Assembly: GCA_963737155.1 (NCBI GenBank)
Contig: CAVTRN010000001.1
Span: forward strand, 864,001-928,000
Length of the DNA stretch: 64,000 nucleotides
Direction: 5' to 3'
From: Nitrospirota bacterium
GTDB lineage: Bacteria > Nitrospirota > UBA9217
The notes under the pieces are model-generated. The model was not told the DNA's origin, did not search any database, and was given only the letters and a program-made list of their open reading frames with translations. The translations under genes and the position numbers were made by a program. Position 1 is the first letter of the stretch. Each line of letters starts with the position of its first letter. This document shows, piece by piece, positions 44,178 to 60,589 of the stretch.

Positions 44178-44308
44178 CTTAAACGGTGCAAAAGGAGGTG
44201 AGGCGTTCGGTTAACACAAAAGGAGGTTAGTCAATGGGGATTATTGAGGTGTTGAAAAAACTGTTTTCCCGGGCACAACGTGCAACGGGCAAAGGGGAGG
44301 TAACAAAC

Positions 44309-44977: not shown

Positions 44978-45925
44978 ATGTTCCGATTAAGCAAAGAACA
45001 AAAAGTATTCACCATGGCTGGCATAAGGGTCGGTGGACAGCCGGCCGAAAACCCCCCTCTCCTGATCGCCTCGATGTTCCATAACAAGGATCGCATCGTG
45101 ACCGACCGGAAGGGGAACTTCGATCGCCAGAAGGCTGCGGACCTCATCAAAACGCAGGAGCAGCTTTCGGCTTCCACCGGCATTCCGTCCATGGTTGCCA
45201 TGGTGGCGAACACGCCAGAGGAAGCGAAGATTTACATCGATTTTTACCGCGAAACGACAGCCATGCCTTTTGGCATCGACATGTGGGTCGCGGAAAAAAG
45301 GGCACAGGCCACCGAATACGTGGCTAAGCTCGGTCTTCAGGACAAGTTTCTCTACAACAGCATTACTCCCTGGGACAAGGACATCAAGGGCCAGGTCCAA
45401 AAGCTCAAGGATCTCGGCATCAAGCACGTTGTAGTCCAGGCATTCGATGATGCCGATCAGTCGCCCGTGGGCCGCCTCAAGTCTCTCGAGAAGATGCTTT
45501 CCCAGGGCGCAGATGGCTTCGACACCGTTATTGTCGATACGTCGGTTATGAACCTGCCGGCCACGTCGTTCTCCCTCGTTGCAAACCGCATGATCAAGGA
45601 GAAGTTCGGCCTTCCCTGCGGCGGCGCCTATTCCAACGGTACGCACATGTGGAAGGAAGCGAAGACCCTGTGGAGTCTCGATGGATTCAAGGCCATGGAC
45701 GCCGTTATTCAGGGAATGGCTTCGGTGATGTGGAGCGACTTCAACTTCTACGGCCCCATCGTCACGGCGCCGCGTATCTTCCCTGCCGTGGCCGCAGCGC
45801 ATATTCTGCTGAGCACACTGGTCTACGATGAAACGCAGAAATTTTCGGACACGGCAAATTTACCGATTAAACAATATTTCGGCGATTTTATCAGTAAGCT
45901 GACGACAGGGGGCACGAGGAAATAA
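44978..45925 (+). CDS. mtrH: MtrH-family (MtrH/CmuB/MtgA-like) methylcorrinoid:pterin methyltransferase
   Basis: MFRLSKEQKVF..AGIRVGGQP.ENP.LLIASMF....IVTD, YNSI, IKEKFGLPCG, FYGPI..A..IFPAVA; no other mtr subunits in the window. Confidence 0.85.
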   Translation: MFRLSKEQKVFTMAGIRVGGQPAENPPLLIASMFHNKDRIVTDRKGNFDRQKAADLIKTQEQLSASTGIPSMVAMVANTPEEAKIYIDFYRETTAMPFGIDMWVAEKRAQATEYVAKLGLQDKFLYNSITPWDKDIKGQVQKLKDLGIKHVVVQAFDDADQSPVGRLKSLEKMLSQGADGFDTVIVDTSVMNLPATSFSLVANRMIKEKFGLPCGGAYSNGTHMWKEAKTLWSLDGFKAMDAVIQGMASVMWSDFNFYGPIVTAPRIFPAVAAAHILLSTLVYDETQKFSDTANLPIKQYFGDFISKLTTGGTRK

Positions 45926-46059: not shown

Positions 46060-47091
46060 ATGACAACGAGTATGACTGCACGAGAACGGGTTCTGAAGCT
46101 CTTTGCCGGCGAAGACGTTGACCGGCCGCCGTGCTTCAGTGGCATGGGAAACGTGACCACCGAGGGCCTGAAAGCGCTGAATCAGAAATTTGCGGCCACG
46201 CATCTGGACGCCAAGATGATGGCTGCCGCGGCAGCCTCGACCTATCGGCTCTTCGGGTTCGAGTGCGGCGTGGCCCCCTTTGACCTCTGCATCGAGGCCG
46301 AGGCCCTTGGCTGCGAGATAAATGTGTACGCTCATTCCGAGGACCTGCTGTATCCCACGATCAAGAAAAAGCTGATCCACAACGAGGCCGAGATGGAGAT
46401 TGCCATCCCTTCAAACCTTACCGGGCGCGGAAGGGTGCCGCTCATGCTTGATGTGATCGGGCTCATGAAGAAGGACATCGGCAGCGAGGCCGCAGTCGGG
46501 TCCTACGTACTCGGCCCCTTTACCCTGGCAGGCCAGGTCATGGAGCTGAATGATCTTCTGAAGCTCTCCTTCAAGAAGCCGGACAAGATTGGCAGGCTGC
46601 TCGACCAGCTTTCGGATGTGATTATCCAGGTCGCAGGACAGTACGAAAAGGCAGGCGTCGACTATATCACGGTGCGGGAGATGGGCGCGACTTCTGATGT
46701 TCTCTCCCCGCGGGTGTTCAAGAGCCTGATTCTTCCCTATCTCAGGAAGATTTTCGAGAAAATAACTGTCCCGAGCGTGCTCCATATCTGCGGCAAGACG
46801 AACGACATCGTTCCTTTCATGGCCGAAAGCGGAGCAAAAGCAATCAGCGTGGACCAGAAGAACGACGTGGCTGAGACAAGGAAGAAGCTCGGCCCCAGAG
46901 CGCTCGTGTTCGGCAATTACGACCCCTACAATGTGCTGGTCGCGGGAACGCCTGAGCTGGTGCGTCAGACCATGAGGAAATGCATGGACGACGGCGTAAG
47001 CGCGGTATGGCCCGGTTGCGATATCTGGCCCACGGTCCCGGCGGAAAATTTCAAGATAATGATGGACGAAGTCAGAAATTACAGGAGGTAA
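46060..47091 (+). CDS. MtaA/CmuA (MT2) Zn-dependent methyltransferase 2
   Basis: MTARERVL, PFDLCIEAEALGC, GRVP, GPFTLAG, HICG and PGCDIW zinc ligands. Confidence 0.9.
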   Translation: MTTSMTARERVLKLFAGEDVDRPPCFSGMGNVTTEGLKALNQKFAATHLDAKMMAAAAASTYRLFGFECGVAPFDLCIEAEALGCEINVYAHSEDLLYPTIKKKLIHNEAEMEIAIPSNLTGRGRVPLMLDVIGLMKKDIGSEAAVGSYVLGPFTLAGQVMELNDLLKLSFKKPDKIGRLLDQLSDVIIQVAGQYEKAGVDYITVREMGATSDVLSPRVFKSLILPYLRKIFEKITVPSVLHICGKTNDIVPFMAESGAKAISVDQKNDVAETRKKLGPRALVFGNYDPYNVLVAGTPELVRQTMRKCMDDGVSAVWPGCDIWPTVPAENFKIMMDEVRNYRR

Positions 47092-47095: not shown

Positions 47096-47788
47096 ATGGC
47101 AACGGAAGAGAAAAAGAAAGAACTCTTGGAAAAGCTCCGAAACGCCGTGATCCAGTATGATGAGGACACAGCCAAAGAAGCGGCCAATGAAGCGCTCAGC
47201 ACGGGCATGAATGCAAATGACGCCATCTTTAACGGACTCGTGAGCGGGATGGTCGAGGTGGGCCGCATGTTCGAGGCACAGGAGTACTTCGTGCCGGAAC
47301 TGCTCATGTGCGCCGATGCGCTCTACGCCGGCCTCGACATCCTGAAACCCCACGTGACGCAGCTCGACCTCGGGGTCAAGGGATCGGTGGTGATCGGGAC
47401 CGTCGAAGGCGATGTGCACGATATCGGCAAGAACATTGTCAAGATGATGTTCGACGTGGCCGGCTTCACGGTTTATGACCTGGGTCGCGACGTGCCCCTT
47501 GACAAATTCGTGCAGGAGCAGCTCCGGACTGATTCAGACCTGGTCTGCCTCTCGGCCATGATGACCACAACCATGACGGGCATGAAGAAAGTGATTGACG
47601 ATCTCCGAACCAGGAACCCGAATGTCAAGATAATGATCGGCGGTGCTCCCGTGTCTCAGGACGTGGCCGATAAATACGGCGCCGATGGCTACGCAAAGGA
47701 TGCGACGAACGCGCTCAAGGACGCAATCAACATGATCAGTTCACTCAAGAAAATGAAGGACGAGGCTGAAGCACGGAAAGCGAAATGA
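47096..47788 (+). CDS. Methyltransferase cognate corrinoid protein (MtaC-like)
   Basis: Cap domain EYFVPELL; base-off His-on motif GDVHDIGKNIV, LSAMMTTT, IGGAP, GADGY. Confidence 0.95.
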   Translation: MATEEKKKELLEKLRNAVIQYDEDTAKEAANEALSTGMNANDAIFNGLVSGMVEVGRMFEAQEYFVPELLMCADALYAGLDILKPHVTQLDLGVKGSVVIGTVEGDVHDIGKNIVKMMFDVAGFTVYDLGRDVPLDKFVQEQLRTDSDLVCLSAMMTTTMTGMKKVIDDLRTRNPNVKIMIGGAPVSQDVADKYGADGYAKDATNALKDAINMISSLKKMKDEAEARKAK

Positions 47789-48477
47789 ACCGGCTAATCA
47801 GGAAAGACCTGCTCGACCACGGCGCCGCAGTCGTCGGCTTTGCCGGGCTGCGGGGATTTTTGAGCGGAGAAATCGCCCATCTGGCGACTGCCGTGTCCAT
47901 CGGTGTGGATCGGAAGCTGAACGAGGACACACTTAGCCTGCTTATGAAGCTCCAAAAACGGGCGGTGCGGTTTTTGAAGTCCCGGGGCTATCGTACTCTG
48001 GCGATCCCGCCGGACTCGGACCGGGGGAAAGGGACTTTCATTTCAAAGCTCTACTCCCTGTTCAACCATAAGATGGCTGCTACCTCCGCGGGCCTGGGGT
48101 GGATCGGGAAGAATGGCCTCCTGATCAGCACGGAGTACGGACCGCGGCTTTCGCTGGTTACGGTGCTGACCGACGCCTCGCTCGATCCGGATGTTCCCAT
48201 GGAGTACAGTCTGTGCGGCGACTGCACGCTTTGCATGCAGTACTGCCCGTCGCAGGCGATCACGGGATTGGAATGGTCCCGGTCCTCGCCCTTTGCTGAA
48301 CTGGTGAAAACGGGCGCCTGCAGGAGCCACAAGGCGGCCAAGCGGGCAACAGACGGGAAACCTAACTGCGGGCTGTGCATCAATATCTGCCCCTATGGAA
48401 GACCGGTTGAAACCGAACAGGGAGTCAAGCTTAAGAAAAAACAGGCATCCGACAAGACACACAGCGGGCAGCAGTGA
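47785..48477 (+). CDS. QueG/reductive-dehalogenase-like 2x[4Fe-4S] protein
   Basis: HKMAATSAGLGWIGKNGLLI..EYGPR..L..VLTD, CGDCTLCMQYCP, C...CGLCINICP. Confidence 0.8.
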   Translation: MNRLIRKDLLDHGAAVVGFAGLRGFLSGEIAHLATAVSIGVDRKLNEDTLSLLMKLQKRAVRFLKSRGYRTLAIPPDSDRGKGTFISKLYSLFNHKMAATSAGLGWIGKNGLLISTEYGPRLSLVTVLTDASLDPDVPMEYSLCGDCTLCMQYCPSQAITGLEWSRSSPFAELVKTGACRSHKAAKRATDGKPNCGLCINICPYGRPVETEQGVKLKKKQASDKTHSGQQ

Positions 48478-48501: not shown

Positions 48502-50484
48502 ATGACCAGAAATTATAAAGTGATTTTCCAACCTGCGGGTAGGCGCGGCGAAATAGAAGAGGGTAGGACTATTCTGCAGGCCGCGCAATCCCTGGGCGTT
48601 GATATCGAGGCGCTCTGCGGCAACAAAAAGGTCTGTGGCAAATGCAAGGTCCGCATCGAAGAGGGTTACTTCGAGAAAGACAACATTGATTCGGGAATGG
48701 CGCATATTTTTCCCGCCGAGCCATCGGCTGATGAGCTGAAACACATTAAACCGCAGGACGGGCCAGGGATCAGGCTGGCGTGCCAGTGCGAGATCCGGGG
48801 TGACGTCAAGGTCTTTGTTCCAGAACGCTCACGGGCCGGAAAGCAGGTCGTGCGCAAGGCGGCCAAGGAGCTCACGATCGCGATCGACCCTGCGATAAGG
48901 AAATATAATGTCGACCTCAAAGCGCCGACGCTTCATGATATGACCACCGGAGATTGGGAGCGCGTGCTCACATTTCTAGAGGAGGACTACGGCCTCAAGG
49001 GGCTGACCTTCGATTATCTTGTGTTGAAGGACATCCAGGACGTCCTGCGCAAAGGCGACTGGAAGGCCACGGTTACGGTATGGATGGACAGGGAGATCAT
49101 CAAGATCGAGCCCGGCTTCGTTGAAGCGATCTACGGTCTTGCTGTCGATGTGGGTACAACGACCTGTGTCGGCTATCTCACCGACTTGACCACGGGGCAG
49201 GTGGTGAATACCGAATCGATGATGAACCCCCAGGTGCCTTACGGCGAGGACGTCATGTCGCGGATTACCTACGCCATGAGCAATCGAGACGGACTCGAGA
49301 CCATGCAGAAAGCGATTATCCAGGGCCTGAACGAGATTATCGAGCGTGTCGTTGTCGATGTTCATAAAGACGGCCCGGAACCCGGGCGGGTAATCGACGA
49401 CCTAACGATCGTTTTCAACACGGCCATGCATCATATATTCCTCGGTCTGAACCCCGAGTACATAGGGCGCTCGCCCTTCATACCCGCAGTCCAGAGTTCG
49501 CTCGACATCAAAGCGCGCGACCTCGGGCTCAGAATTAACCCTGCATCCTACATTTATGTGCTTCCCATTGAGGCGGGTTTCGTAGGTGCCGACAACGTAG
49601 GTGTGCTGATCGCCGAGGAACCCTATAATCAGGACGAGAACGTGCTGATTATAGACATCGGCACGAACGGCGAGTTGCTGCTCGGCAACCGGAACAGAGT
49701 CTGCTCCACATCTTGTGCCACTGGCCCAGCCTTCGAAGGCGCTCAGATCAAATTCGGCATGCGCGCCGCGCCGGGGGCTATCGAGACCGTTGAGATCGAT
49801 CCGCTGACTAGGGAGCCGCGCTATAAAGTGATAGGCAAGGCGGATTGGCATACCCATATTCAGCAGGTAAACGCCAAGGGCATCTGCGGGTCAGGCATCA
49901 TCCAAGTCGTGGCCGAGATGTTCAAGGCCGGCATTATCGATAAATCCGGTCGGTTCGTGATGGACCTGGGTACACCGAGGGTCAGGAAAGATGCTGAGGG
50001 CAAACCGGAATACGTGCTTGCTTGGGCTTCGGAAACCTCGATCAGCCAGGAAATAACCGTCACCCAGGGGGATGTGAGAGCGCTGCAGCTGGCGAAGGGG
50101 GCACTCTACACCGGGGCCAAACTCATGATGAAGCGGCTGGGAATCACCCAGCTCGACCGCGTCATCCTGGCCGGCGCCTTTGGTAGCCACATCGACCGGG
50201 AGGCCTCACTTACGCTTGGCATGTTCCCCGATTGCCCAATCGACAAGATATATGCCGTGGGCAACGCGGCCGGAGACGGTTCGCGTATGGCGCTACTGAA
50301 CAGGAGCAAACGGCGCGAGGCAAGCGAACGCGCGCGATGGGTTGAGTTCGTTGAGATCGCCACGGACCCGTTGTTCGAGCGGGAATTCATGATGGCTATG
50401 CATATTCCGCACATGAAGGACAAGTTCCCGAACCTGAAGGAACTGCTTGATAAGTCGAAGAGCCCCGTGGATATCAAGGCATAG
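48502..50484 (+). CDS. ATP-dependent reductive activator of corrinoid proteins (RACo, ASKHA/DUF4445)
   Basis: N-terminal [2Fe-2S] CGNKKVCGKC...RLACQ; DVGTTT, NPQVPYGEDVMSRI, GFVGAD, DIGTNGE, GICGSG, LAGAFG, GNAAG. Confidence 0.93.
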   Translation: MTRNYKVIFQPAGRRGEIEEGRTILQAAQSLGVDIEALCGNKKVCGKCKVRIEEGYFEKDNIDSGMAHIFPAEPSADELKHIKPQDGPGIRLACQCEIRGDVKVFVPERSRAGKQVVRKAAKELTIAIDPAIRKYNVDLKAPTLHDMTTGDWERVLTFLEEDYGLKGLTFDYLVLKDIQDVLRKGDWKATVTVWMDREIIKIEPGFVEAIYGLAVDVGTTTCVGYLTDLTTGQVVNTESMMNPQVPYGEDVMSRITYAMSNRDGLETMQKAIIQGLNEIIERVVVDVHKDGPEPGRVIDDLTIVFNTAMHHIFLGLNPEYIGRSPFIPAVQSSLDIKARDLGLRINPASYIYVLPIEAGFVGADNVGVLIAEEPYNQDENVLIIDIGTNGELLLGNRNRVCSTSCATGPAFEGAQIKFGMRAAPGAIETVEIDPLTREPRYKVIGKADWHTHIQQVNAKGICGSGIIQVVAEMFKAGIIDKSGRFVMDLGTPRVRKDAEGKPEYVLAWASETSISQEITVTQGDVRALQLAKGALYTGAKLMMKRLGITQLDRVILAGAFGSHIDREASLTLGMFPDCPIDKIYAVGNAAGDGSRMALLNRSKRREASERARWVEFVEIATDPLFEREFMMAMHIPHMKDKFPNLKELLDKSKSPVDIKA

Positions 50485-50514: not shown

Positions 50515-50829
50515 ATGACAAAAGTCGTTGTACATTCGGGAGCGTGTGGTTTTATTGTTACAATACATGCGGTGAAGAGCACAGGAGGAACAATAACGCT
50601 TCGTATCGATACGGACTGCGAGATGGTAAAAAAGATGCTCGAGGACATCTCCGTTCTTGACCGGTTCGCGGCGCTCACCGCCTTCCAGCACAATCCCGTG
50701 TATCGCTCTGCAGCAAAACACCTGAAGCATGTTGCCTGCACCGCGCCAGCGGGAATCATAAAGGCGATCGAGGTCGAGGCTGCTCTAAACGTGCCAAAAG
50801 ACGCAGATATCTGCTTCGTGAAACCATAG
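50515..50829 (+). CDS. Small Cys-containing protein (DUF6951-like)
   Basis: GACGF, TDCEMV, HVACTAPAGIIKAIEVE pattern; family name from memory. Confidence 0.7.
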   Translation: MTKVVVHSGACGFIVTIHAVKSTGGTITLRIDTDCEMVKKMLEDISVLDRFAALTAFQHNPVYRSAAKHLKHVACTAPAGIIKAIEVEAALNVPKDADICFVKP

Positions 50830-50960: not shown

Positions 50961-51656
50961 ATGGATGTCATGGGGAAAATACTTATCACCGCAGCGTACT
51001 TCGTATTCGCTGTGTTCTGGATACGGTTTTTTACTCACGCGTTGATATGGTGGAATGCCGCATCGCGATTCCGGGGAACCGCCGGGCAGTCGATCCGGCC
51101 CTCCATGAAAGCATACGCGCTCACGGCAATGGACATGGTCTGTTTCGGGAAACTTCTTATGGTGAACCCGGCGCTCTGGCTGGGCGAGTGGGTATTCCAT
51201 GTCTCCTTTGTCCTGGTGTTGTTGAGGCATTTGCGGTTTTTTTTAAATCCTGCTCCTGAGTGCATATGGTGGGTCCAGACACCAGGCCTGATAGCCGGCT
51301 ATATCCTGCCGGTGTCGCTAGTCTACATCATGCTCGTCCGGTTTTTTTCAGGAAGGGAACGCTATACTTCACCGGCAAATATGTTTCTCCTCGGCCTCGT
51401 GCTTGTCATTAGCTCGCTCGGCGTTGCAATGCACCTGCTGTTCAAACCGAACCTTGTGGAGGTGAAGCTGTTCGTCCTGGGCATCCTGAGCTTCAGGCCT
51501 GTTGCAGCGCCTGAGAGCTTTCTGTTCGCGATTCATTTCTGCCTGGTCCTGGTCCTGATTCCCTTTCTCCCCACTCATCTTTTCTTTGCTCCCTTCGTGA
51601 TGATGGAGGCAAGAAAGCGGGAGCAGGCATTGCGTCTGGTAATGCATGAAAAATAA
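50961..51656 (+). CDS. NarI/DsrM/HdrE-like membrane b-type cytochrome
   Basis: About five TM helices with paired His: WVFH...LRHLRFF and AIHF...PTHL. Confidence 0.8.
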   Translation: MDVMGKILITAAYFVFAVFWIRFFTHALIWWNAASRFRGTAGQSIRPSMKAYALTAMDMVCFGKLLMVNPALWLGEWVFHVSFVLVLLRHLRFFLNPAPECIWWVQTPGLIAGYILPVSLVYIMLVRFFSGRERYTSPANMFLLGLVLVISSLGVAMHLLFKPNLVEVKLFVLGILSFRPVAAPESFLFAIHFCLVLVLIPFLPTHLFFAPFVMMEARKREQALRLVMHEK

Positions 51657-52863
51657 GCGTTCGTTCACAGAAGAGCTTCTCCCCCAACAGATCCTCGAAA
51701 TCGGTGCCTGTACTCGGTGCGGCGAGTGCCTCAAGCACTGCCCTGTTCAGGACGTGACGAGCAATCCCTCGATCTCCCCGCCTGAGAAAATCCGCATGTT
51801 TCGTGAATTTATCCGCTCTACCGATGGACTCAAGTCAACGCTCTTCGGGTCCGGGAACGTGGATCGGAAGCTGCTGGATGACTTTACCCGGGCGGTATAT
51901 GAATGTACTACGTGCGGTGCTTGCGGCCAGAATTGCCCGGTCGGCATCTTTACGCAACGTCTCTGGCCCATGCTTAGGAAAGAGATGGTCAAGCGGGGGC
52001 TTGGACCAATTGGCGCCCAGGCGAACATACCGAAGGCGATCATGAGCAGCGGCAATCCCTATGAGAAGCCATCGTCTGAACGATACCATCCGTGGTTCCC
52101 GAGATATGTGAAAATAGCGGACCGGTCGGAAATAGCCTATTATGCCGGTTGCACTGGTGCGTATGAAGCGCAGCCCATGGTTCGTGGTGATATCCTTGTG
52201 CTTGATGCGGTCGGAGCGCCCTTTACCATGCTTCCCCCGGAGGAAGAGGTCTGCTGCGGATTTCCCCTCTTCATTACCGGACAGCACGACCAGCTCACGG
52301 ACCTCATTATCCGCTTGGTGAAGGGATATGAGGCGCGGGGAGTGAAGATCTTGGTCTGCTCCTGCCCCTGCTGCGTGAATATCATGACCAGGGACTGGCC
52401 CCTGTTCTATGGCAAGTCGCTGCCCTTTAAGATACGGCACATTACGCAATATGTCTCTGATGCGATCAAGGATGGCAGACTGCGTGTGAAAAAGGAGCTG
52501 CGCGAAGCAGTGATCTACCATGACCCGTGCTACCTCTCGCGCGGTGTAGGAGTAATCGAGGAGCCGCGAAACGTGCTGAGGAGCATCCCGGGGCTTACTC
52601 TGCTGGAGTTCGAACACCACGGCGTCAACTCCCGTTGCTGCGGCTCGGGAGGGGCGGCAAGAAAGGTCTACAATGATAACGCGATCGCCATGGGCAGGCT
52701 AACGATCGACGAAGCGGTGGCAAAGAAGGCTGACCGGCTGATCCTAAGCTGCCCGGCCTGCTATGCCAAGGTAAACGAAGCCATGCAGGGACACAAGAAC
52801 CAGATCCGGATCACGGATATCATGGAACTGGTGAGCATCATGATTGAAGGTGACAGATCATGA
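51646..52863 (+). CDS. HdrD/DsrK/GlpC-like Fe-S oxidoreductase (2x[4Fe-4S] plus two CCG domains)
   Basis: CTRCGECLKHCP, CTTCGACGQNCP; YYAGC..VCCG..CPCC; YHDPC..RCCG..CPAC. Confidence 0.88.
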   Translation: MKNKRSFTEELLPQQILEIGACTRCGECLKHCPVQDVTSNPSISPPEKIRMFREFIRSTDGLKSTLFGSGNVDRKLLDDFTRAVYECTTCGACGQNCPVGIFTQRLWPMLRKEMVKRGLGPIGAQANIPKAIMSSGNPYEKPSSERYHPWFPRYVKIADRSEIAYYAGCTGAYEAQPMVRGDILVLDAVGAPFTMLPPEEEVCCGFPLFITGQHDQLTDLIIRLVKGYEARGVKILVCSCPCCVNIMTRDWPLFYGKSLPFKIRHITQYVSDAIKDGRLRVKKELREAVIYHDPCYLSRGVGVIEEPRNVLRSIPGLTLLEFEHHGVNSRCCGSGGAARKVYNDNAIAMGRLTIDEAVAKKADRLILSCPACYAKVNEAMQGHKNQIRITDIMELVSIMIEGDRS

Positions 52864-54119
52864 GTCATTTTTCTATTCGTTGTAGGAAGTGCGACAAAAC
52901 CCTTGAGAACACGTACTGTGTCTTTTGCGAACATTGCGCTGACGCGCTCTTGGTGACGGATTATCACCAGGCTCATTTCTCAGAACGCGCGGCCGGCGGC
53001 GCATGGCGATTCAACTGGCTGCCGGTGCACGAACCGCAGGCGGCTCAGCCCGGTCCCGTGGTGTACCGGTCCCAGGGTCTTGCCTGGAGTCTTGGTCTGG
53101 ATAATCTGTTTATTGCCTTTAACGGCTACTGGCCCGAACGCGGAGCGTTGCTCGAGACTTGTACATTCAAGGAATTCGAGGCGGCCGTCGTGCTCCAGAA
53201 TGCCCGTGAGAACGGTGTAGAAGGCCTGGTTGTCGCTTCTGCTGGAAACACGGCCCGGGCCTTCGCCCATCTTTCTGCGGTCACGGGTTTTCCGGTTATC
53301 ATTCTCGTGCCGCGAATGTGTCTCATGGAAATGTGGTACCTTGAAAGCAAAGCCACGATAGCTACGCTCGCGTTAGGTGACGGTGATTACGCCGATTCCA
53401 TCGATGTTGCCAAGCGGGTCGCCGCAACAATCGGGTTCCCCTTCGAGGGCGGCGTTAAGAACATAGCCAAGCGCGACGGTCTCGGCATCGTGATGCTCGA
53501 GGCGGTCTCGACGATTGGGAGACTACCTGACCACTATGTCCAGGCCGTGGGAAGCGGCACAGGTGCAATCGGCACCTGGGAAATGGCGGAACGTTTTGTC
53601 AAAGATGGACGTTACGGCTCCCGACTGCCTCTCATGCACCTCGGCCAGAATCTGCCATTTGCACCGATGCTTCATGCCTGGGAGCAGGGCAGCAGGACAC
53701 TGTTTCCCGACGACTTGAAGCCGGAGTTGATCTCTCGGATCACGACGCGGGTCCTTTCGACCCGCTATCCCGCATACTCGGTCATCGGCGGTGTTTACGA
53801 CATGCTCTCCGCAACCCGCGGAATCATGTATGGCATTGAAAATGACGAAGTCTATGCCGGCATGGAAATGTTCCAGAAGGCCGAAGGCATCGACATCGTT
53901 CCCGCCTCGGGCGTTGCGGTCGCCGTGCTCCGGGAGGCCCTGCATAGGAGGGCCATTAAAAGCAGCGATACTGTTCTCCTGAACATTACGGGCGGCGGAG
54001 AAGCGAGACTGCTGCAGGACAGAAAGACCCATGCTGTTGTGCCGAAGTACATATCCAGGAACATCACCGAGAGAGAGGTAGAGGATCTGCTGTGCCACAA
54101 CCTGAAGAAAAACTCATAG
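52860..54119 (+). CDS. Cysteate synthase (threonine-synthase-like PLP enzyme, Methanosarcinales type)
   Basis: AFNGYWPERGA..ETCTFKEFEA, ASAGNTARAF, EGGVKNIAKRDGLG, QAVGSGTG, LNITGGG. Confidence 0.85.
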   Translation: MSHFSIRCRKCDKTLENTYCVFCEHCADALLVTDYHQAHFSERAAGGAWRFNWLPVHEPQAAQPGPVVYRSQGLAWSLGLDNLFIAFNGYWPERGALLETCTFKEFEAAVVLQNARENGVEGLVVASAGNTARAFAHLSAVTGFPVIILVPRMCLMEMWYLESKATIATLALGDGDYADSIDVAKRVAATIGFPFEGGVKNIAKRDGLGIVMLEAVSTIGRLPDHYVQAVGSGTGAIGTWEMAERFVKDGRYGSRLPLMHLGQNLPFAPMLHAWEQGSRTLFPDDLKPELISRITTRVLSTRYPAYSVIGGVYDMLSATRGIMYGIENDEVYAGMEMFQKAEGIDIVPASGVAVAVLREALHRRAIKSSDTVLLNITGGGEARLLQDRKTHAVVPKYISRNITEREVEDLLCHNLKKNS

Positions 54120-55234
54120 ACTTGCTCAGGAAGAACGGAATTGATTTTACCGCATCGCTTCCCTGCGAGAAGATTAAAACCCTTCTTGACCTGGTGGATC
54201 GGTCCTTCCCGCATGTCCCCCTCACGCGCGAGGAAGAAGGCGTCGGCATATGCGCCGGCGCTGCGCTCGCTGGCAAAAAACCGGCCATCTTCATCCAGAG
54301 TTCCGGCATCGGGAACATGATCAATGCCCTGCTGTCGCTCACGGCATTCTATGAACTGCCTCTTGCGCTATTTATCAGCAGACGGGGCATCTACCAGGAG
54401 AAAATCGAGGCTCAGTTCCCCATGGGCCAGCGGCTTCCGTCAATCCTGGATGGCGCAGGGATCGGCTATTCGGAAATCAACACTGTTGATGACCTCGCCG
54501 TTGTTGACGTTGAGTTGCCGGAGGTCTACCGAAAGAACGTGATTCATGCTTTCCTGCTAAATCCGGCAGTGTGGGAAAACTCGGATTGCCGATCACAGAC
54601 TGCGAATTGCGGATTTAAGCAAAAAAAAACCGGTGTTCAGAATGCATCACCAATCGTGCCGCATGCATTGCGGCCAATACTCACACGGTATGAGATTTTG
54701 AAAACCATTGCTCCCTATCTTGACGGCAAGGCAGTTGTGTGCAATCTCGGATGGCCCTCCAAGGAACTGTATGCAATCAAGGACCAGCCATCGAATTTCT
54801 ACATGCTCGGTAGCATGGGCATGGCCACGCCTATCGGCTTGGGCATCTCCCTCACGTCATCCAAAGAGGTGGTCGTGCTCGATGGCGATGGAAGCCTGCT
54901 CATGAATCCCGGAACACTGGCGACCGCTGCCGCTGCCGCACCCCGGAACCTGATGATCATCGCCATCGACAACGGAGCTTATGGCTCGACAGGAAACCAG
55001 CCGACACTGACGGCATCCTGCACGGACCTGGAGCAGGTGGCGAGGGGATTCGGATTCAGGGAGACGGTGAAAGCAGCGTCAGAAAAGGAATTTGTAGAGG
55101 TTATGAAACAGCATCTGCAGGGTGTTGCCTTTATCCATGCCCTGGCAATACCGGGAAACAAGGATGTGCCGAACATTCGACTCCATCATCTTGAGATCAA
55201 AAAGCAGGTGCAGGATTTTTTGAACAAACCATAA
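54092..55234 (+). CDS. comDE: Sulfopyruvate decarboxylase, fused alpha+beta subunits
   Basis: ComD half: SLPC, PLTREEEGVGICAGA, QSSGIGNMINAL. ComE half: NLGWPSKEL, NFYMLGSMG, TPP motif DGDGSLLMN...IDNGAYGSTGNQ. Confidence 0.87.
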   Translation: MPQPEEKLIDLLRKNGIDFTASLPCEKIKTLLDLVDRSFPHVPLTREEEGVGICAGAALAGKKPAIFIQSSGIGNMINALLSLTAFYELPLALFISRRGIYQEKIEAQFPMGQRLPSILDGAGIGYSEINTVDDLAVVDVELPEVYRKNVIHAFLLNPAVWENSDCRSQTANCGFKQKKTGVQNASPIVPHALRPILTRYEILKTIAPYLDGKAVVCNLGWPSKELYAIKDQPSNFYMLGSMGMATPIGLGISLTSSKEVVVLDGDGSLLMNPGTLATAAAAAPRNLMIIAIDNGAYGSTGNQPTLTASCTDLEQVARGFGFRETVKAASEKEFVEVMKQHLQGVAFIHALAIPGNKDVPNIRLHHLEIKKQVQDFLNKP

Positions 55235-55247: not shown

Positions 55248-55847
55248 TCATAACCGCCCCGAAGTTCCGTATTCCCGGACATAAACCTTGATAGCCCTGA
55301 GGATTATCCAGTCAAGGGTGACGTTGTTCTCCTTCGCGATGCTGATCAAGGCATCGATCGTATCTTTGTCAATGACGGGTATGTCTTGCGGTTTAGCCGT
55401 CTCCGCAGCCGCTGTTTCCAATTCCGCTGCTTCTAATAATTCCTCTCCTGCTTCGGGATTCCGTTTCAGATGTTCCCGCCGCAGCATGTCCGTCAATTCC
55501 TGCACGTTGCCGCCCTGAATGGCGCTTCGAACATCCCCGGGAACATCCCCTGCCGTGATCGCTTGCTCAGGTATCGCGCCTTCCAGCGGCTGCCGCAAAT
55601 TTAACTCCGGCGGTGCTCCCTGAGACATGCCGGTCATTCCAAGCATCATGGTCACCAAGTTCCTGGCATATTCATTATCAGGCATTTCCTGCTTGAGCAA
55701 CTCATCAAGTTTGCCTTCCACCATGGCCGCTGCCATGCGGTCTGCTGTCAGGGATTCACGGTTCTCGCTCTTCTCGGACGACTTTTTCCAGCCGAATGCG
55801 GTGGTCGGCGGCGTAGGTAGAGGTTTGTTCTTATCTGTTTTTTTCAT
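55248..55847 (-). CDS. Hypothetical protein with possible C-terminal ribbon-helix-helix-like segment
   Basis: 199-aa ORF with GAGGGG SD; C-terminus IDKDTIDALISIAKENNVTLDWIILRAIKVYV. Confidence 0.7.
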   Translation of the reverse strand: MKKTDKNKPLPTPPTTAFGWKKSSEKSENRESLTADRMAAAMVEGKLDELLKQEMPDNEYARNLVTMMLGMTGMSQGAPPELNLRQPLEGAIPEQAITAGDVPGDVRSAIQGGNVQELTDMLRREHLKRNPEAGEELLEAAELETAAAETAKPQDIPVIDKDTIDALISIAKENNVTLDWIILRAIKVYVREYGTSGRL

Positions 55848-55954: not shown

Positions 55955-56899
55955 TTACCCCGTTATTGCGATCCCATCGTGATAATGCTCTTTTTCGGGA
56001 TGAATGTGGTCGATAATCTCCCGTGAGAAGATCCGATCCGGCCCCACAGCGGAGCCGATATATCCTCTTTTTTCTAAAACCGGCACGAACTTCATGGTCG
56101 AAGCGATATATTCCCCCGTCAATTGGGCGCAGTATTTTGGCGAAACCGCAAGCGTATCTCGTACAAATTCCTGATCGATGATGCCGACGAAGTCCGCGAT
56201 CGCGAGCGCGGCATCTGACGGATGCTGTCTTATAAACGCGGTGGCCTCCTCATGAAGGAGAAGGAACCGTTCCACGGTCTTCTTTTCTGCCTGCAGGAAT
56301 CTCCGGTCAGCCACGATACCGTAGCTCGGGTTGGCAGGCCAAAGCAACGACGGGGGGTACAATATCTTACCACCGGCAAAGCGCTTGATGGCGACGGCGA
56401 GCGCGGGAGTACCGAATGCTGCCGAGACCTCATCATGAACAACGGCTTCGGTTACCAGATCAGCCCATGGATAATTGACGATCGTGACCTCCGAACCCAG
56501 ATCATATCGCTCAATACAGTCCTTCAGGATGACGTCATGGATCGATCCTTTTCCGGGCACGCCGATTCTTCGTCCCCGGAACTGCTGCAGGACCGCGCGC
56601 AAATCCGCCCCCTCGGCATGACCCAGCCATTGAGACTTACCGGCCATGACCGTTCCTTCCATGTGGCCGCCTGCCAAGCAGATTACGTCGATACCCTGTG
56701 CAATACCGATAATCGCCGGAGGAAGCCCGATATAGGCAAGATCAAGCTCGCGGTTCTGAAAAGCCTGCATGATGGCAGGACCGGTACCCAGCAGCTTCCA
56801 CTCCACCTCTGCCTCAAGGCGGGCATTGGTGTTTCCCTTTGCCATCAACAGAATCGCTGTATGATAAAAGGTCGACAGATGACCTATCCTGATCTTCAC
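55955..56899 (-). CDS. SsuA/NrtA/THI5-like substrate-binding-fold protein without signal peptide
   Basis: GTG 56899 with AGGAG SD; IRIGHLST, GPAIMQAF..ELDLAYIGLPPA, IGVPGKGSIHDV; in-frame TGA shortly upstream. Confidence 0.82.
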   Translation of the reverse strand: MKIRIGHLSTFYHTAILLMAKGNTNARLEAEVEWKLLGTGPAIMQAFQNRELDLAYIGLPPAIIGIAQGIDVICLAGGHMEGTVMAGKSQWLGHAEGADLRAVLQQFRGRRIGVPGKGSIHDVILKDCIERYDLGSEVTIVNYPWADLVTEAVVHDEVSAAFGTPALAVAIKRFAGGKILYPPSLLWPANPSYGIVADRRFLQAEKKTVERFLLLHEEATAFIRQHPSDAALAIADFVGIIDQEFVRDTLAVSPKYCAQLTGEYIASTMKFVPVLEKRGYIGSAVGPDRIFSREIIDHIHPEKEHYHDGIAITG

Positions 56900-56940
56900 T
56901 GATGGTGATGCTCCTGCGAGCGAGTCTGAGTCCTGTAACA

Positions 56941-56969
56941 ATATTAATCTTGATCTGCTTCGAAGTCAA
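56941..56969 (-). promoter_or_regulatory. sigma70-type promoter for the binding-fold gene
   Basis: Minus strand TTGACT-17 nt-TAATAT. Confidence 0.5.
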
Positions 56970-57096
56970 CAAACTTGCAAAGCCCTCAAATTGCTTTTTT
57001 TGCCGTTTACGGTGCATGTCGGAAACCCGAAGTCTGGCAGCGAACAAACTCCTTTCTAGTTGCCCGTCCTGTTATGCTGTGTTACTATATAATAAC

Positions 57097-59127
57097 ATGA
57101 AAATCGTACTTGACAAGGACAGTTCGGAGGTGCTCAGAACGCTCGACGTGCTGGGCATGCCCGCGTTTATTGTGGATCGACAATGGACTATCCTATCGTG
57201 CAATGACGGAGTGTCTTCTTTTTTTGAATACGACCGGTCAGATATTATCGGCCGCAATATTGAAAAATACATATCTCTCGATACTATCCTCCGGGAGCGC
57301 GAAATAATGGGCACTTCTCCGACTGCCGATGCTGCCCTGGACGGTGAAGCTTCGCCGTCCCTCCGCTCGTTCTGCTTCCGCAGGCGCAGGAGTCCCGTAA
57401 CGTCTCGGATTGCCGTCATTCCAAACAGAAAACACCGGCCCGAAAGGATGATTGTCGTAGTACGTGATACACCGAACCGCGAAAACCCATCCTCGGACAT
57501 TATTTCCGCCATCCAGAGCAACAGCGTTGCTCAGGGAGAACTAATAAGTGAGCTGAGCAGTATTATCAACTCCAGTCTAAGCATTGGGACGATCTTCCGT
57601 ATGGTCGTGTCCGAACTGCGAAAGATCATCGATTACAGCAGGGCAAGTCTCCTGCTGTACAACGAAAAGGACAACAACCTCACGATTTTCGCATTGGACA
57701 CGGAAATGAAGACGGTGATGAAAAAAGGAGTGAAGGCCCCCATTGAAGGCACAAGCGCGGGCTGGGTTGTGCAGAATAACAAACCATGGATCAGCCATGA
57801 TCTCAAGGACACCCTGTTCGCCCTGGACAGGAAGCTCATGGCCGAAGGCATTCGCTCGACGATTAGCATTCCTCTGTTCCACGACCGCATGCTCGGCGTG
57901 TTCAATTTCGACAGCACTGAGCCGTTGCAATATGCCGAAACGGATCTTGATATTCTGCTGCCTGTTGCAAAGCAGATCGCCATTGCCCTCGAGAACGCAC
58001 TCCTCTTTGAGGAGATCTCGAAGGAAAAAAAGGAATGGGAGAGGACCTTTGACGCGATCACTGACATGGTCTGGATCGAGGATGGAAGGCAGCGCGTGAT
58101 CCGCGCTAATCATGCCCTCCTCGCAAGGACTGGCTTCGCAAAGGTAGAGGTAGCTGACAAGCTATGCACCGAGGTCCTCGACAAGGTCGGTATCGCCGCT
58201 ACCAGCGGCTGTCTCTGCTCCGAGATGCTATCCTGCCGGATACCGGCGTTCCGGGAGCTGAAGAGTGGAACAGGCGGCATCTTCCATTTCTGGGTTTACC
58301 CGCTCATCGATGAAGAGGGGCGGCTCTACGCAATCGTCCACTATCTGAAGGATGTAACATCCCAGAAGCGCATTGAGCAGCAGCTGATCCGTACAGACAA
58401 GCTTGCCTCTCTCGGTACGTTGGTGGCCGGCGTGGCACATGAGATCAACAATCCTCTGGGGATCATCGCGGGTTATTCCGAGGCTCTCCTCGACCGCGCG
58501 GGGAACAAGGCCCTGACCGGGGTCTGGGAATTCGAGGATTTCCCCGAATATCTCAAGACCATCCACAGCGAGATTTTCCGCTGCAAGGGGATTCTGAAAA
58601 GCCTGCTCGAGTTTGCCCGTCCATCCGGAGGAACGTTCCGGGAGATCGATATTAACGAGCTGATCAAGGAAGTACTGCTCCTGCTCCAGCACCGCGCTTC
58701 GCGCCTGAAACACTCTCTCGTGCTGAACCTGAATCGGGATGTTCCTAAGATTTACGCGGATGCTGGAAGCCTCCGGCAGCTGTTGATGAACCTTCTGCTC
58801 AATGCTGTCTACTTCACGCCTGAGGGTGGGAGCATCTTCATCAGTACCGAACAGGACGACAGCGTGCAGGAGGCGAGGTTCGAGGGATGCCTAAGCCGGG
58901 TGTGCCTCTCTGTTGCCGATACCGGGGCAGGCATCCCGGCGGATCTTCTGGACAAGGTCTTCGACCCTTTCTTTACCACTAAACCGGTGGGCGAAGGTAC
59001 CGGTCTTGGTCTCACCATCTGCCACCGGATCGTGGAAGAGCATGGCGGCGTTATTGACGTGGAAAGCGAACTCGGCAAAGGCGCGCGATTTATCATAACG
59101 CTGCCGTCGATCTCATGCAGGGAGTGA
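57097..59127 (+). CDS. Cytoplasmic PAS-GAF-PAS sensor histidine kinase
   Basis: GAF (SAGWVV...IRSTISIPL...QIAIALENA), WERTFDAI PAS, AHEINNPL, DTGAGI, FDPFFTTK, GTGLGL. Confidence 0.92.
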   Translation: MKIVLDKDSSEVLRTLDVLGMPAFIVDRQWTILSCNDGVSSFFEYDRSDIIGRNIEKYISLDTILREREIMGTSPTADAALDGEASPSLRSFCFRRRRSPVTSRIAVIPNRKHRPERMIVVVRDTPNRENPSSDIISAIQSNSVAQGELISELSSIINSSLSIGTIFRMVVSELRKIIDYSRASLLLYNEKDNNLTIFALDTEMKTVMKKGVKAPIEGTSAGWVVQNNKPWISHDLKDTLFALDRKLMAEGIRSTISIPLFHDRMLGVFNFDSTEPLQYAETDLDILLPVAKQIAIALENALLFEEISKEKKEWERTFDAITDMVWIEDGRQRVIRANHALLARTGFAKVEVADKLCTEVLDKVGIAATSGCLCSEMLSCRIPAFRELKSGTGGIFHFWVYPLIDEEGRLYAIVHYLKDVTSQKRIEQQLIRTDKLASLGTLVAGVAHEINNPLGIIAGYSEALLDRAGNKALTGVWEFEDFPEYLKTIHSEIFRCKGILKSLLEFARPSGGTFREIDINELIKEVLLLLQHRASRLKHSLVLNLNRDVPKIYADAGSLRQLLMNLLLNAVYFTPEGGSIFISTEQDDSVQEARFEGCLSRVCLSVADTGAGIPADLLDKVFDPFFTTKPVGEGTGLGLTICHRIVEEHGGVIDVESELGKGARFIITLPSISCRE

Positions 59128-59254
59128 CACCGTGAAACCTTGGGTCAAAGGAGACTTTGAAGTCTCGGGTTTCCCTTGGAGGGAAAGAGGAACTTAGATG
59201 CAGGAATTACGGAGCACGATGAAGCCGCCCGTGTTAAGGGAAAACAAATTGCTT

Positions 59255-60589
59255 ATGATCAACATTCTCGTCGTGGACGACGAAGAGCCCTTCAGAAGGC
59301 TCCTGAAAAAAGAACTTGCCCGTAAAGGATATTCAGTGGAGGTCGCGCCCGACGGTAGCGAGGCTTTGCGCCTTCTTCGCGACCGTTCCTTCGATGTGAT
59401 CCTGCTCGACGTGGTCATGCCCGGAGTGGACGGTATTTCGCTCATGAAACAGCTAAAGGAGGAACCGAGCGCGCCGGCGATCATCGTGCTAACCGGCAAG
59501 GCCACTGTGGAAACGGCGGTAGAGGCCATGAAGAACGGCGCTCATGACTATCTTACCAAACCCTACAAGCTCGACGAACTTGCCATCGTGATCGAGCGCA
59601 CCTATGAGTTCAGGAGGCTGTCCGTCAAGAGCAAACTCCTCGAACAGGAGTTGGTTAGGCAGGAGGCGCCTTTCGAATTCATCGGGAAAAGCAGACAGCT
59701 CCAGGATATACTCGCTCTCATCCAGAAGGTGGCGCCGACTGATTCGGCGGTGTTTGTCCAGGGAGAAAGCGGGACGGGTAAAGAGCTGGTAGCGAACACG
59801 GTATGGCGCTACAGCGCCAGAAAGGATGCTCCCTTCATCGCACTCAACTGCGCCACCCTGTCGGAAAACCTGATTGAATCCGAGATTTTCGGCCATGAAA
59901 AGGGAGCATTCACCAGCGCCTACCAGTTGAAGCACGGGCTTGTAGAAGTGGCTGACAAGGGAACGCTGTTTCTGGACGAGATCGGCGAAATGCCCTTCGG
60001 GCTCCAAGCAAAGTTCCTGCGTTTTCTTGATGCTGGCGAGTTCCGTCGGGTGGGCGGGAACAAATCACTATGCGCCGATGTGCGCATGATTGCCGCTACC
60101 AACAAGGATCTCCTGGCAATGATCAAGGCCGGAACGTTTCGCGAAGATTTGTACTACCGGCTGAATGTCATCAATATCACGATCCCCCCCCTTCGGGATC
60201 GGAAGGAGGACGTCGGCGATCTGGCAGGGCATTTTCTGGACAAGTATACGAAGAAGCTTGCAAAACCCATTACTGCGTTTACATCAGAGGCAACGGATTT
60301 GCTTTCCGCCTATCGGTGGCCTGGCAACGTGCGGGAGCTCGAAAATGTAATCGAACGTGCGGTGATCGTTTGTGAAACGGGCACGATTGGTGCCGAGGAT
60401 CTCTCCATCTCGTCTTACTCCGCGATTGACGACATGAGCGTCAATCCGTCGCTTGAGGAGATGGAAAAAAATTACATCCTCAGGGTCCTGAACGAGACTG
60501 CCGGCAACCAGTCCAGGGCAAGCCAGCTACTGGGCATCGATCGCAAGACCTTGTATCTCAAATTGAAAAAATACGGTATTAATCCATGA
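59255..60589 (+). CDS. sigma54-dependent NtrC-family response regulator (REC-AAA+-HTH)
   Basis: VVDDE, LLDVVMP, GESGTGKE, ESEIFGHEKGAFTSA, FLDEIGE, WPGNVREL, Fis HTH LGIDRKTLY. Confidence 0.95.
   Translation: MINILVVDDEEPFRRLLKKELARKGYSVEVAPDGSEALRLLRDRSFDVILLDVVMPGVDGISLMKQLKEEPSAPAIIVLTGKATVETAVEAMKNGAHDYLTKPYKLDELAIVIERTYEFRRLSVKSKLLEQELVRQEAPFEFIGKSRQLQDILALIQKVAPTDSAVFVQGESGTGKELVANTVWRYSARKDAPFIALNCATLSENLIESEIFGHEKGAFTSAYQLKHGLVEVADKGTLFLDEIGEMPFGLQAKFLRFLDAGEFRRVGGNKSLCADVRMIAATNKDLLAMIKAGTFREDLYYRLNVINITIPPLRDRKEDVGDLAGHFLDKYTKKLAKPITAFTSEATDLLSAYRWPGNVRELENVIERAVIVCETGTIGAEDLSISSYSAIDDMSVNPSLEEMEKNYILRVLNETAGNQSRASQLLGIDRKTLYLKLKKYGINP

Follow-up and report, generated by a model that had tools for sequence, protein, structure and literature searches.

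A predicted cysteate synthase-ComDE gene pair lies in a conserved corrinoid methyltransferase operon of Nitrospirota that lack the canonical coenzyme M synthase

Introduction

Coenzyme M (CoM) is regarded as a cofactor for the metabolism of methane and alkanes in archaea and, made by a different route, for the alkene metabolism of a few aerobic bacteria. Here we analyze a stretch of 64,000 nucleotides (nt) from a Nitrospirota bacterium (GenBank assembly GCA_963737155.1, contig CAVTRN010000001.1, positions 864,001 to 928,000), which we refer to as the window; positions are those of the window unless a contig is named. The window encodes a predicted cysteate synthase and a predicted fused sulfopyruvate decarboxylase (ComDE), the enzymes expected to supply the CoM precursor, at the end of an operon that also encodes corrinoid methyltransferases and a putative disulfide reductase. 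The canonical last enzyme of the archaeal pathway is absent from the genome. The reading that we tentatively favor, with slightly less than even confidence, is that these bacteria, which lack MCR and carry DsrAB, make CoM or a closely analogous thiol, employ this compound together with the methyltransferases and the disulfide reductase, and complete its synthesis by a last step that does not depend on ComF.

The closest described route is the phosphoserine-dependent CoM pathway of Methanosarcinales and Methanomicrobiales, which consists of cysteate synthase, aspartate aminotransferase, ComDE, and MMP16 (ComF). As in the window, these archaea can carry the cysteate synthase gene next to a fused ComDE, an arrangement recorded for Methanoculleus (PMC4045070), and their sulfite comes from their own sulfur metabolism. 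MMP16, a COG1900 protein, was shown by Chadwick et al. (2025, PMC12068725) to be the primary CoM synthase. According to the same study, Methanosarcina acetivorans without MMP16 requires CoM only when sulfide is absent. For the abiotic formation of CoM from sulfide and sulfoacetaldehyde the authors refer to earlier work, and they leave a nonorthologous backup enzyme possible. A bacterial CoM maker is known in Xanthobacter, whose unrelated XcbB1-E1 route starts from phosphoenolpyruvate (PEP), proceeds via phosphosulfolactate, and serves alkene metabolism (Wu et al., 2022, PMC9457059).

Three other systems resemble the remainder of the operon. In Methanosarcina, the methyltransferases MtaA, MtbA, and MtsA have the URO-D fold with a His-Cys-Cys zinc site and work with a corrinoid protein and the activase RamA, while HdrDE pairs a membrane cytochrome b with an iron-sulfur subunit that has two CCG domains. 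Type 1 mlp clusters of strict anaerobes, as described in a 2023 preprint by Kountz and Balskus (PMC10418091), combine several MtaA-like His-Cys-Cys enzymes with a corrinoid protein, a RACE-type activase, and sulfur-related accessory genes. Finally, DsrMK of sulfate reducers consists of a NarI-type cytochrome b and a CCG protein, with a small cysteine protein, DsrC, encoded alongside. We found no published description of the present genes in Nitrospirota, or of DUF6951, a family encoded in the operon; the supplementary tables of PMC12068725 and PMC10418091 might list such bacteria.

Results

Identity of the cysteate synthase and ComDE

The first gene of the pair (52860 to 54119, + strand; 419 amino acids (aa), ATG start) encodes a pyridoxal phosphate (PLP)-dependent protein with a PF00291 domain. 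It scored 460.2 bits with the cysteate synthase model TIGR03844, for which the cut-off is 324.9. Family scores described here as over or under refer to the cut-off of the respective model. The alignment was near full length, with residues 4 to 395 placed on model positions 1 to 394. The second gene (54092 to 55234, + strand; 380 aa, GTG start) encodes a thiamine pyrophosphate (TPP)-dependent protein that passed the models for both ComDE subunits. The ComD model TIGR03845 gave 185.1 bits versus a cut-off of 147.95, and the ComE model TIGR03846 gave 229.9 versus 221.5, which is marginal.

A misassignment of both enzymes, in which threonine synthase would be the true identity of the PLP enzyme and phosphonopyruvate decarboxylase that of the TPP enzyme, is highly improbable. 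The ComE half is only 8 bits over its cut-off, and the phosphonopyruvate decarboxylase model TIGR03297 still gave the TPP enzyme 213.8 bits. However, the cut-off of that model is 312.5, and no PEP mutase was found over cut-off in the genome (best match, 118.7 versus 319.55), so that the TPP enzyme is not expected to belong to a phosphonate pathway. On the PLP enzyme, all threonine synthase models were far under cut-off (best, 88.1 versus 303), and the same genome has a separate ThrC-like gene (C2:1149486-1150607, on contig 2). A preliminary description of this stretch, made from the letters alone, had assigned the pair as we do and had named these two other identities as the ones that would overturn it; the scores uphold its assignment. 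By family, the pair is a genuine cysteate synthase and fused sulfopyruvate decarboxylase, and the catalytic activities are predicted accordingly.

With neither ComA nor PEP mutase in the genome, we see no source of sulfopyruvate other than cysteate. The phosphoserine-dependent route proposed in the preliminary description therefore stands, and the lack of ComA separates it from the Xcb route of Xanthobacter. No cysteate aminotransferase is encoded within the cluster, and we assume that a general aspartate aminotransferase takes this step. In distant relatives the gene context fits the assigned chemistry: a Heimdallarchaeota locus has a PAPS reductase gene followed by cysteate synthase, and in a Dehalococcoidales genome a class I/II aminotransferase gene stands directly after it.

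We found orthologs of the cysteate synthase, at 63 to 88% identity, at 60 loci. These closest loci come from metagenome-assembled genomes (MAGs) filed under Nitrospirota, Nitrospirae, Thermodesulfovibrionia, or Ca. Sulfobium, and in one case Betaproteobacteria. The copy of the cluster in the Betaproteobacteria MAG (L012; relatives are given here by locus, L, or genome, G) is 80% identical and probably reflects a binning error.

The preliminary description had reported that the two genes overlap by 28 nt and that the cysteate synthase start overlaps the preceding stop codon, and both junctions are present in the sequence. The cysteate synthase stop codon, TAG, occupies 54117 to 54119, and ComDE begins with GTG at 54092, 7 nt downstream of a GAGGA motif. 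At the upstream junction, the TGA of the CCG protein gene (52861 to 52863) and the ATG at 52860 share the letters ATGA. Overlaps and gaps in relatives were counted on the longest open reading frames (ORFs). In all 52 loci with both genes, ComDE starts at the same position, so that the genes share 25 nt in 28 loci and 28 nt in the other 24; the start codon is ATG in many relatives and GTG in the window. As none of the 52 loci lacks the overlap, we regard it as real and conserved and not as an artifact of ORF calling. In several relatives (G007, G032, G046, G049, L033, L061, and L062), the cysteate synthase or CCG genes are split or contain in-frame stops, which may be assembly indels or real decay.

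A catabolic or respiratory role of the pair would reverse the direction of the route. Imported sulfonates would be degraded via sulfopyruvate and sulfoacetaldehyde, the PLP enzyme would act as a lyase, and the cytochrome b and CCG proteins encoded upstream would free or reduce sulfur for DsrAB. ComDE is known from bacterial sulfolactate degradation, DsrAB is present, and three relatives (L033, L043, and L061) have SsuABC-type transporters inside the cluster, with true SsuA-family binding proteins (191 to 195 bits versus 163.5) and their ABC partners. In contrast, the window and most relatives have no transporter in the cluster, and the PLP enzyme reaches equivalog level with the model for cysteate synthase, a biosynthetic enzyme that consumes sulfite. 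The PAPS reductase that precedes the Heimdallarchaeota gene is a sulfite supplier, which also speaks for synthesis. No desulfonating enzyme was found, Xsc being under cut-off; the glycyl-radical isethionate lyase was not searched for. We consider the catabolic role very improbable.

Absence of the canonical last enzyme

The preliminary description saw no COG1900-type protein in the window, which we confirmed, and a search of the genome was equally empty. The genome comprises 4.84 Mb in 2 contigs and is 100% complete. No match to COG1900/DUF39 (PF01837) was found anywhere in it, and the MMP16 model TIGR03287 matched only ferredoxin domains, at 31 bits or less. The wider survey covered all 64 genomes of the class and a phylum sample of 401 Nitrospirota genomes, evenly drawn. 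Within the class, cysteate synthase was over cut-off in 34 genomes and fragmentary in 4 more, and PF01837 was found in 0 of the 64. Within the phylum sample, 70 genomes from at least 13 families carry cysteate synthase, and PF01837 occurs in 10, all from two families without cysteate synthase. The absence of PF01837 from the genome, the class, and all 70 carriers in the phylum sample indicates that it is systematic and not an assembly gap. One suggestion of the preliminary description, that the final enzyme is encoded elsewhere, is thereby refuted for the canonical form of that enzyme. The Dehalococcoidales genome mentioned above encodes cysteate synthase and a COG1900 protein; it lacks ComDE and therefore does not provide a bacterial instance of the complete archaeal pathway.

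DsrA and DsrB are encoded in the window's genome, away from the cluster, so that sulfide should be at hand for a ComF-independent thiolation, which has a precedent in M. acetivorans without MMP16. The genome also encodes acetyl-CoA synthase. The DsrA match (G000:C2:1107884-1109035, on contig 2 of the same genome) scored 566 bits and was reported with one in-frame TAG, which may be a boundary effect, an error, or recoding.

Methyltransferases and corrinoid proteins encoded upstream

The operon encodes two putative methyltransferases of the URO-D superfamily, which we call MtaA1 and MtaA2. MtaA1 (43116 to 44177, + strand; PF01208, 203.6 bits) is predicted to be a corrinoid methyltransferase with a His-Cys-Cys zinc site. 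It is under the cut-off of every NCBIfam MtaA and MtbA model. It aligns to MtaA of Methanosarcina mazei (PDB 4AY7) with the HxC and C ligands retained, and H248, C250, and C330 are present in 44 of 44 sequences. MtaA2 (46060 to 47091, + strand) belongs to the MtaA/CmuA family of methylcobamide:thiol methyltransferases by NF004889 (265.1 versus 244) and TIGR01463 (247.7 versus 235.4). It passes the subfamily cut-off for "methylcobalamin:coenzyme M methyltransferase," and its nearest solved structure, again 4AY7, matched at 157 bits. Its residues H242, C244, and C320 are kept in 44 to 45 of 45 sequences. According to the part of the Kountz and Balskus preprint that treats zinc ligands (PMC10418091), the His-Cys-Cys sphere marks S- and Se-methyltransferases, while O-demethylases replace the Cys ligands. 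Its retention in both proteins suggests thiol-type enzymes, not methoxy-aromatic demethylases. The presence of thiol-type methyltransferases in the same operon is the best argument that the product of the cysteate synthase and ComDE pathway is a thiol.

Between the two lies the gene for an MtrH-family methyl-pterin:corrinoid methyltransferase (44933 to 45925, + strand), which scored 324.2 bits with NF002142 (cut-off, 287) and 183.8 with PF02007. A 662-aa protein from a 33-kb NCBI contig (P0121) has an MtrH domain (residues 4 to 309) fused to an MtaA2-like domain (324 to 661) that is 58% identical to MtaA2. This fusion forms a Rosetta-stone link between MtrH and MtaA2-like methyltransferases. 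In relatives, FolD is encoded inside the cluster at L040 and MTHFR beside it at L059.

Three further genes complete the predicted corrinoid system. A B12-binding corrinoid protein (47096 to 47788, + strand; PF02310 and PF02607) scored just under the cut-off of TIGR02370 (205.9 versus 215.3). The next gene (47785 to 48477, + strand) encodes a small protein of the QueG/RdhA/MMACHC fold that has two [4Fe-4S] motifs and is under the cut-offs of the QueG and RDH models. Eight Cys residues are invariant among 35 sequences, and Foldseek matched its AF2 model (pLDDT 79.5) to QueG (5e-10), RdhA (6e-8), and MMACHC (3e-4). On the basis of this model, we read the protein as a probable cobamide-handling partner of the corrinoid system rather than as a CoM enzyme. 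A RACo-type corrinoid reductive activase follows (48502 to 50484, + strand; PF14574 at 316 bits, PF17651, and PF17650); with AcsV it scored 481 versus 800.

This gene set resembles the Methanosarcina systems in its URO-D-fold His-Cys-Cys enzymes, corrinoid protein, and activase. It differs from them in that the activase is of the RACo type, a soluble pterin methyltransferase of the MtrH type replaces membrane Mtr, MCR is lacking, and MtaA2 groups with proteins of bacteria and stays below the cut-off of the MtaA equivalog. Its gene content is likewise close to that of type 1 mlp clusters. Those with Mlp2 and Mlp3 are described in the preprint as lacking a tetrahydrofolate methyltransferase, whereas MtrH is present here, and the available text reports no CoM-synthesis or Hdr-like genes for mlp clusters, whereas the operon has both types.

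The gene between MtaA1 and MtrH encodes an AhpD/CMD-like protein (44234 to 44752, + strand; PF02627, 26.8 bits) with the motif C95-x3-C99-x2-H102, whose Cys and His residues are kept in 32 to 33 of 33 sequences. Its true start is probably M26, since many orthologs have 146 to 148 aa. This protein and a CobW-like protein encoded beside the operon gave weak, sub-cut-off hits to selenoprotein-associated NCBIfam models, which recall the suggested selenium link of mlp clusters. The models are those for an arsenosugar-associated peroxidase-like protein, an ArsM/AhpD selenoprotein, GSU3128, and a CobW-related selenoprotein.

A second corrinoid methyltransferase cluster is located on contig 2 of the same genome, at about 690 to 703 kb (locus L074), and contains neither MtrH nor sulfonate genes. 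It encodes MTHFR, a PAS kinase together with a regulator of the LuxR type, a pair of URO-D proteins of which one is 49% identical to MtaA2, a GTPase of the CobW type, an AAA protein of the CbbQ/NorQ type, a 903-aa protein without a family match, a DUF2284 protein, and a corrinoid protein.

A putative disulfide reductase and DUF6951

Directly upstream of cysteate synthase are two genes that resemble a membrane-bound disulfide reductase. The first (50961 to 51656, + strand) encodes a membrane cytochrome b-like subunit of the NarI/DsrM/HdrE type. Its orthologs in relatives match PF02665, and H80, H90, H192, and H206, which we infer to bind heme, are kept in 48 of 48 sequences. The second (51646 to 52863, + strand) encodes an HdrD/TfrB/DsrK-like iron-sulfur protein with PF02754 in two stretches (76.4 bits). 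This CCG protein has two ferredoxin-type [4Fe-4S] motifs and two HdrB-type CCG motifs, with all Cys residues invariant among 39 sequences. Its best family hits were thiol-disulfide enzymes, TfrB at 180.5 versus 385 and DsrK at 96.1 versus 400, both under cut-off; neither an HdrD nor an HdrB model was among the listed hits. The pair resembles HdrDE of Methanosarcina in combining a membrane cytochrome b with a two-CCG iron-sulfur subunit. It is also similar to DsrMK, from which it differs in that it stays below the cut-offs of both the DsrK model and the DsrM model (DsrM, 60.5 bits versus 300), the small cysteine protein encoded alongside belongs to DUF6951 and not to DsrC, and dsrAB lies elsewhere in the genome.

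The DUF6951 gene (50515 to 50829, + strand; 104 aa; PF22263, 98.5 bits) had been missed in the preliminary description. C11, C35, H72, and C75 are invariant in a 37-sequence alignment. With the AF2 model (pLDDT 94), about the top 45 Foldseek rows were IscU, SufE, SufU, CsdE, or NifU, the best at an E value of 0.012 and a TMq of 0.53. A profile search against PDB sequences found nothing up to E = 10. Of 14 control genomes, only that of M. acetivorans has PF22263 over cut-off, a further likeness to Methanosarcina; Atlas clusters place the family in Thermodesulfobacteriota and Chloroflexota as well. It was found in 0 of 251 sampled genomes of the class to which the Dehalococcoidales MAG belongs.

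These features raise the idea that DUF6951, together with a menaquinol-linked, HdrD-like CCG/cytochrome b pair, forms a non-homologous CoM synthase, and that the CoM carries methyl groups between methyl-thioethers and tetrahydrofolate in a soluble MtrH/MtaA system while its disulfide is coupled to the quinone pool. Such a synthase could be of the nonorthologous type that Chadwick et al. left open as a methanogen backup. We propose it on account of how the genes are ordered, of a last step that would require both a sulfur donor and a reductant, and of the weak fold hint, and we consider it unlikely in this specific form. A complex prediction for the CCG protein and DUF6951 returned a score of 0.01 and gives no verdict either way.

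The thiol could also serve mainly as a low-molecular-weight redox buffer, with the AhpD-like protein as a thiol-dependent peroxidase or reductase, the cytochrome b/CCG pair as a disulfide reductase driven by quinol, and the methyltransferases only loosely connected. The conserved Cys-x3-Cys-x2-His motif of the AhpD-like protein and the presence of an HdrD-like reductase fit this role. In addition, overexpression of comDE is reported in a 2025 study (PMC12713407) to shield methanogens from oxidative stress. On the other hand, the AhpD-like gene is located between two methyltransferase genes, away from the reductase, the cluster has no peroxiredoxin partner, and the dedicated regulator appears to be a two-component sigma-54 system, with no obvious stress regulator. 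A mainly redox-buffering role is therefore quite improbable in our judgment.

Operon structure and conservation

From the sequence, we predict that cysteate synthase and ComDE end a 13-gene, 12.4-kb operon of the sigma-54 type that is syntenic in about 40 to 50 relatives. Its first gene encodes a protein that consists only of a receiver domain (42787 to 43119, + strand; 110 aa; PF00072, 37.9 bits), and the stop codon of this gene overlaps the MtaA1 start. Orthologs were found at 6 loci with upstream flank. A -24/-12 promoter-like element, TGGCATcactgTTGCA, lies 16 nt before this gene (42756 to 42771, + strand). It has one mismatch to TGGCAC-N5-TTGCW, and 6 of the 10 relatives that we inspected have a GG-N10-GC element upstream of the cluster. 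The likely activator of this promoter is a sigma-54-dependent response regulator encoded downstream (59198 to 60589, + strand; PF00158 at 225.8 bits, PF00072, and PF02954), with orthologs at L010, L011, and L059. Upstream of the regulator is a PAS-GAF-PAS histidine kinase gene (56902 to 59127, + strand), which only the closest relatives (L009 to L011) keep next to the cluster.

Gene presence was counted on the 60 cluster-type loci, for each gene among those with enough flank. ComDE was present in 50 of 51 loci, the CCG protein in 48 of 53, cytochrome b in 45 of 50, DUF6951 in 46 of 48, and RACo in 42 of 46. The corresponding counts were 39/43 for the QueG-like protein, 41/43 each for the corrinoid protein and MtaA2, 38/40 for MtrH, and 32/40 for the AhpD-like protein; several of the missing genes are split ORFs. 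A second cytochrome b/CCG pair occurs at L033. Some relatives have two full copies of the cluster, with 86 to 88% identity to the window at cysteate synthase, as in one MAG with L009 and L011 and in G028, on contigs 40 and 16.

Among the 64 class genomes, 36 encode an MtaA2 ortholog along with cysteate synthase, 23 have neither, and 5 are mismatched. Of the 3 with MtaA2 only, G025 and G045 have ComDE fragments at contig ends, and the contig of G051 breaks off 4 kb beyond MtaA2; the 2 with cysteate synthase only are 65 to 68% complete. Four of the five mismatches are thus explained by assembly gaps or low completeness, leaving one high-quality genome as a possible exception. The genomes are kin and not independent, so these counts demonstrate inheritance or loss as a block and are not a statistical association.

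The operon could nevertheless consist of two unrelated modules that are neighbors by descent: an mlp-like methyl-sulfide or methyl-selenide:tetrahydrofolate system without CoM, and, from DUF6951 through the cytochrome b, CCG, and cysteate synthase genes to ComDE, a source of sulfoacetaldehyde for taurine, isethionate, sulfoacetate, or another sulfonate. Several points favor such a division. His-Cys-Cys UroD clusters in CoM-free bacteria are linked to methyl-sulfur or methyl-selenide metabolism in PMC10418091, and the nearest relatives of MtaA2 are bacterial. The weak selenoprotein-model hits of the AhpD-like and CobW-like proteins, the second URO-D/corrinoid cluster without sulfonate genes, the 132-nt gap before the cytochrome b gene, and the gaps between the CCG and cysteate synthase genes in many relatives point the same way. 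Against it, gain or loss affects the block as a unit, apart from the possible exception above. No promoter-like or sigma-54-like element was found in scans of the + strand between 50484 and 50961, and a disulfide reductase has no role in taurine or isethionate synthesis. Moreover, no known consumer of sulfoacetaldehyde was found, the best Xsc match being 341.6 versus 676.4; reductases and aminotransferases that would lead to isethionate or taurine were not searched for. We regard two separate modules as a real though rather unlikely alternative.

Flanking genes and other features of the window

A CobW/HypB/UreG-family GTPase, a likely metallochaperone, is encoded divergently from the operon (41392 to 42267, - strand; PF02492, 135 bits); the ZigA and CobW models are under cut-off. 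Its ortholog is upstream of the cluster at L020 and downstream of ComDE at L034. Convergent with ComDE is a gene for a conserved 199-aa protein without a Pfam or NCBIfam match (55248 to 55847, - strand), homologs of which (38 to 71% identity) lie downstream of the cluster at many loci. It is followed by a gene for an NMT1/SsuA-fold protein (55955 to 56941, - strand; PF13379, 60.3 bits; SsuA_fam, 84.4 versus 163.5), in which we read no obvious signal peptide. The accessory proteins named in the preliminary description (cytochrome b, CCG, QueG-like, AhpD-like, and binding-fold proteins) therefore all exist.

An Rfam scan of positions 40000 to 64000, with E values up to 0.1, was empty, with no riboswitch before the cluster or between 50484 and 50961. 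Scans for sigma-70 promoters and terminators gave matches at chance level only. Farther upstream, the window encodes a pair of large RND pumps of the AcrB type along with a membrane-fusion protein (33317 to 41058), and an ABC efflux set of the MacB/FtsX type along with an outer-membrane factor (23968 to 28423). The G+C content is 0.40 to 0.51 in the first half of the window and 0.52 to 0.57 in the cluster region.

Discussion

The locus shares with the archaeal phosphoserine pathway its adjacent cysteate synthase and fused ComDE genes, and differs from it in three respects: the host is a bacterium without MCR, COG1900/MMP16 is absent from every carrier genome searched, and the pair is part of a methyltransferase/Hdr-like operon. 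The preliminary description had recognized the two enzymes, the route, and the missing canonical enzyme, all of which stand; it had overlooked the operon context, the DUF6951 gene, the B12-processing or B12-reductase fold of the QueG-like protein, and the sulfide available from DsrAB.

We infer the thiol product, its use, and the nature of the last step from gene identities, synteny, and co-occurrence. In the reading that we tentatively favor, phosphoserine and sulfite would yield cysteate, a housekeeping aminotransferase would convert it to sulfopyruvate, and ComDE would produce sulfoacetaldehyde, the precursor of CoM or of a very close C2 sulfonate thiol. The last thiolation would use the cell's own sulfide, either uncatalyzed or through a promiscuous enzyme; alternatively, DUF6951 would carry the sulfur and the CCG protein would supply the electrons. 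At least one MtaA-like enzyme would then take methyl groups from this thiol or pass them to it, which would connect methyl-thioethers with methyl-tetrahydrofolate. Methyl groups would pass between MtaA1, MtaA2, or both and the corrinoid protein and, via MtrH, tetrahydrofolate. The cytochrome b/CCG pair would recycle the disulfide of the thiol in a quinol-linked reaction. Further points in favor of this reading are a sulfonate signal, namely the SsuA-family transporters inserted in the cluster at L033, L043, and L061, and a link to C1 metabolism through FolD at L040, MTHFR at L059, the acetyl-CoA synthase of the genome, and the natural MtrH-MtaA2-like fusion.

Several observations weigh against this reading. 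No PF02249 match, and hence no MCR, was found in the window's genome, which leaves CoM without a dependent consumer of known specificity. MtaA2 is under both equivalog cut-offs (245.8 versus 400 for MtaA_Meth and 180.1 versus 600 for MtbA). Its nearest relatives outside the clade, at 41 to 58% identity, come from Anaerolineae, Desulfotomaculum, Desulfobacterales, and Dehalococcoidales and include the fusion protein P0121, and none of them, at the level of 50% clusters, reaches the methanogen MtaA equivalog cut-off; another homologue search returned only orthologs of at least 83% identity and is uninformative on distant affinities. To our knowledge, CoM is not known in any of these four groups. 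The thiol substrate of MtaA2 could therefore be sulfide, methanethiol, selenide, or another compound, a possibility also raised for mlp clusters.

The gene arrangement is also open to other explanations. Synteny among relatives could come from common descent and not from common function. The 4-nt overlap of the CCG and cysteate synthase genes is found in only 17 of 52 loci, the rest having small gaps, and one cluster (L020) has neither cytochrome b nor the CCG protein. For DUF6951, the fold likeness is weak: VIA gave IscU a Z score of 6.5 and unrelated domains 5 to 6, and hhalign against the genome's own IscU returned a probability of 0.07 and thus no profile relationship. Lastly, the backup route of M. 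acetivorans may need L-ASST, which is also a COG1900 protein (PMC12068725); such a protein is likewise absent here, PF01837 being found in 0 of the 64 class genomes.

A conserved operon of abundant anaerobic soil and groundwater Nitrospirota thus couples archaeal-type CoM precursor genes with predicted thiol methyltransferases and an Hdr-like reductase. If our reading is correct, comDE, cysteate synthase, and mtaA would be unsafe as markers of methanogens in metagenomes, and DUF6951 would gain its first functional context. The operon would also offer a setting, naturally free of ComF, for identifying the alternative final reaction hinted at by methanogen genetics. For the organisms themselves, CoM or a near analogue would have a part in a new bacterial physiology, probably the cycling of methyl-sulfur or C1 compounds together with sulfate reduction.

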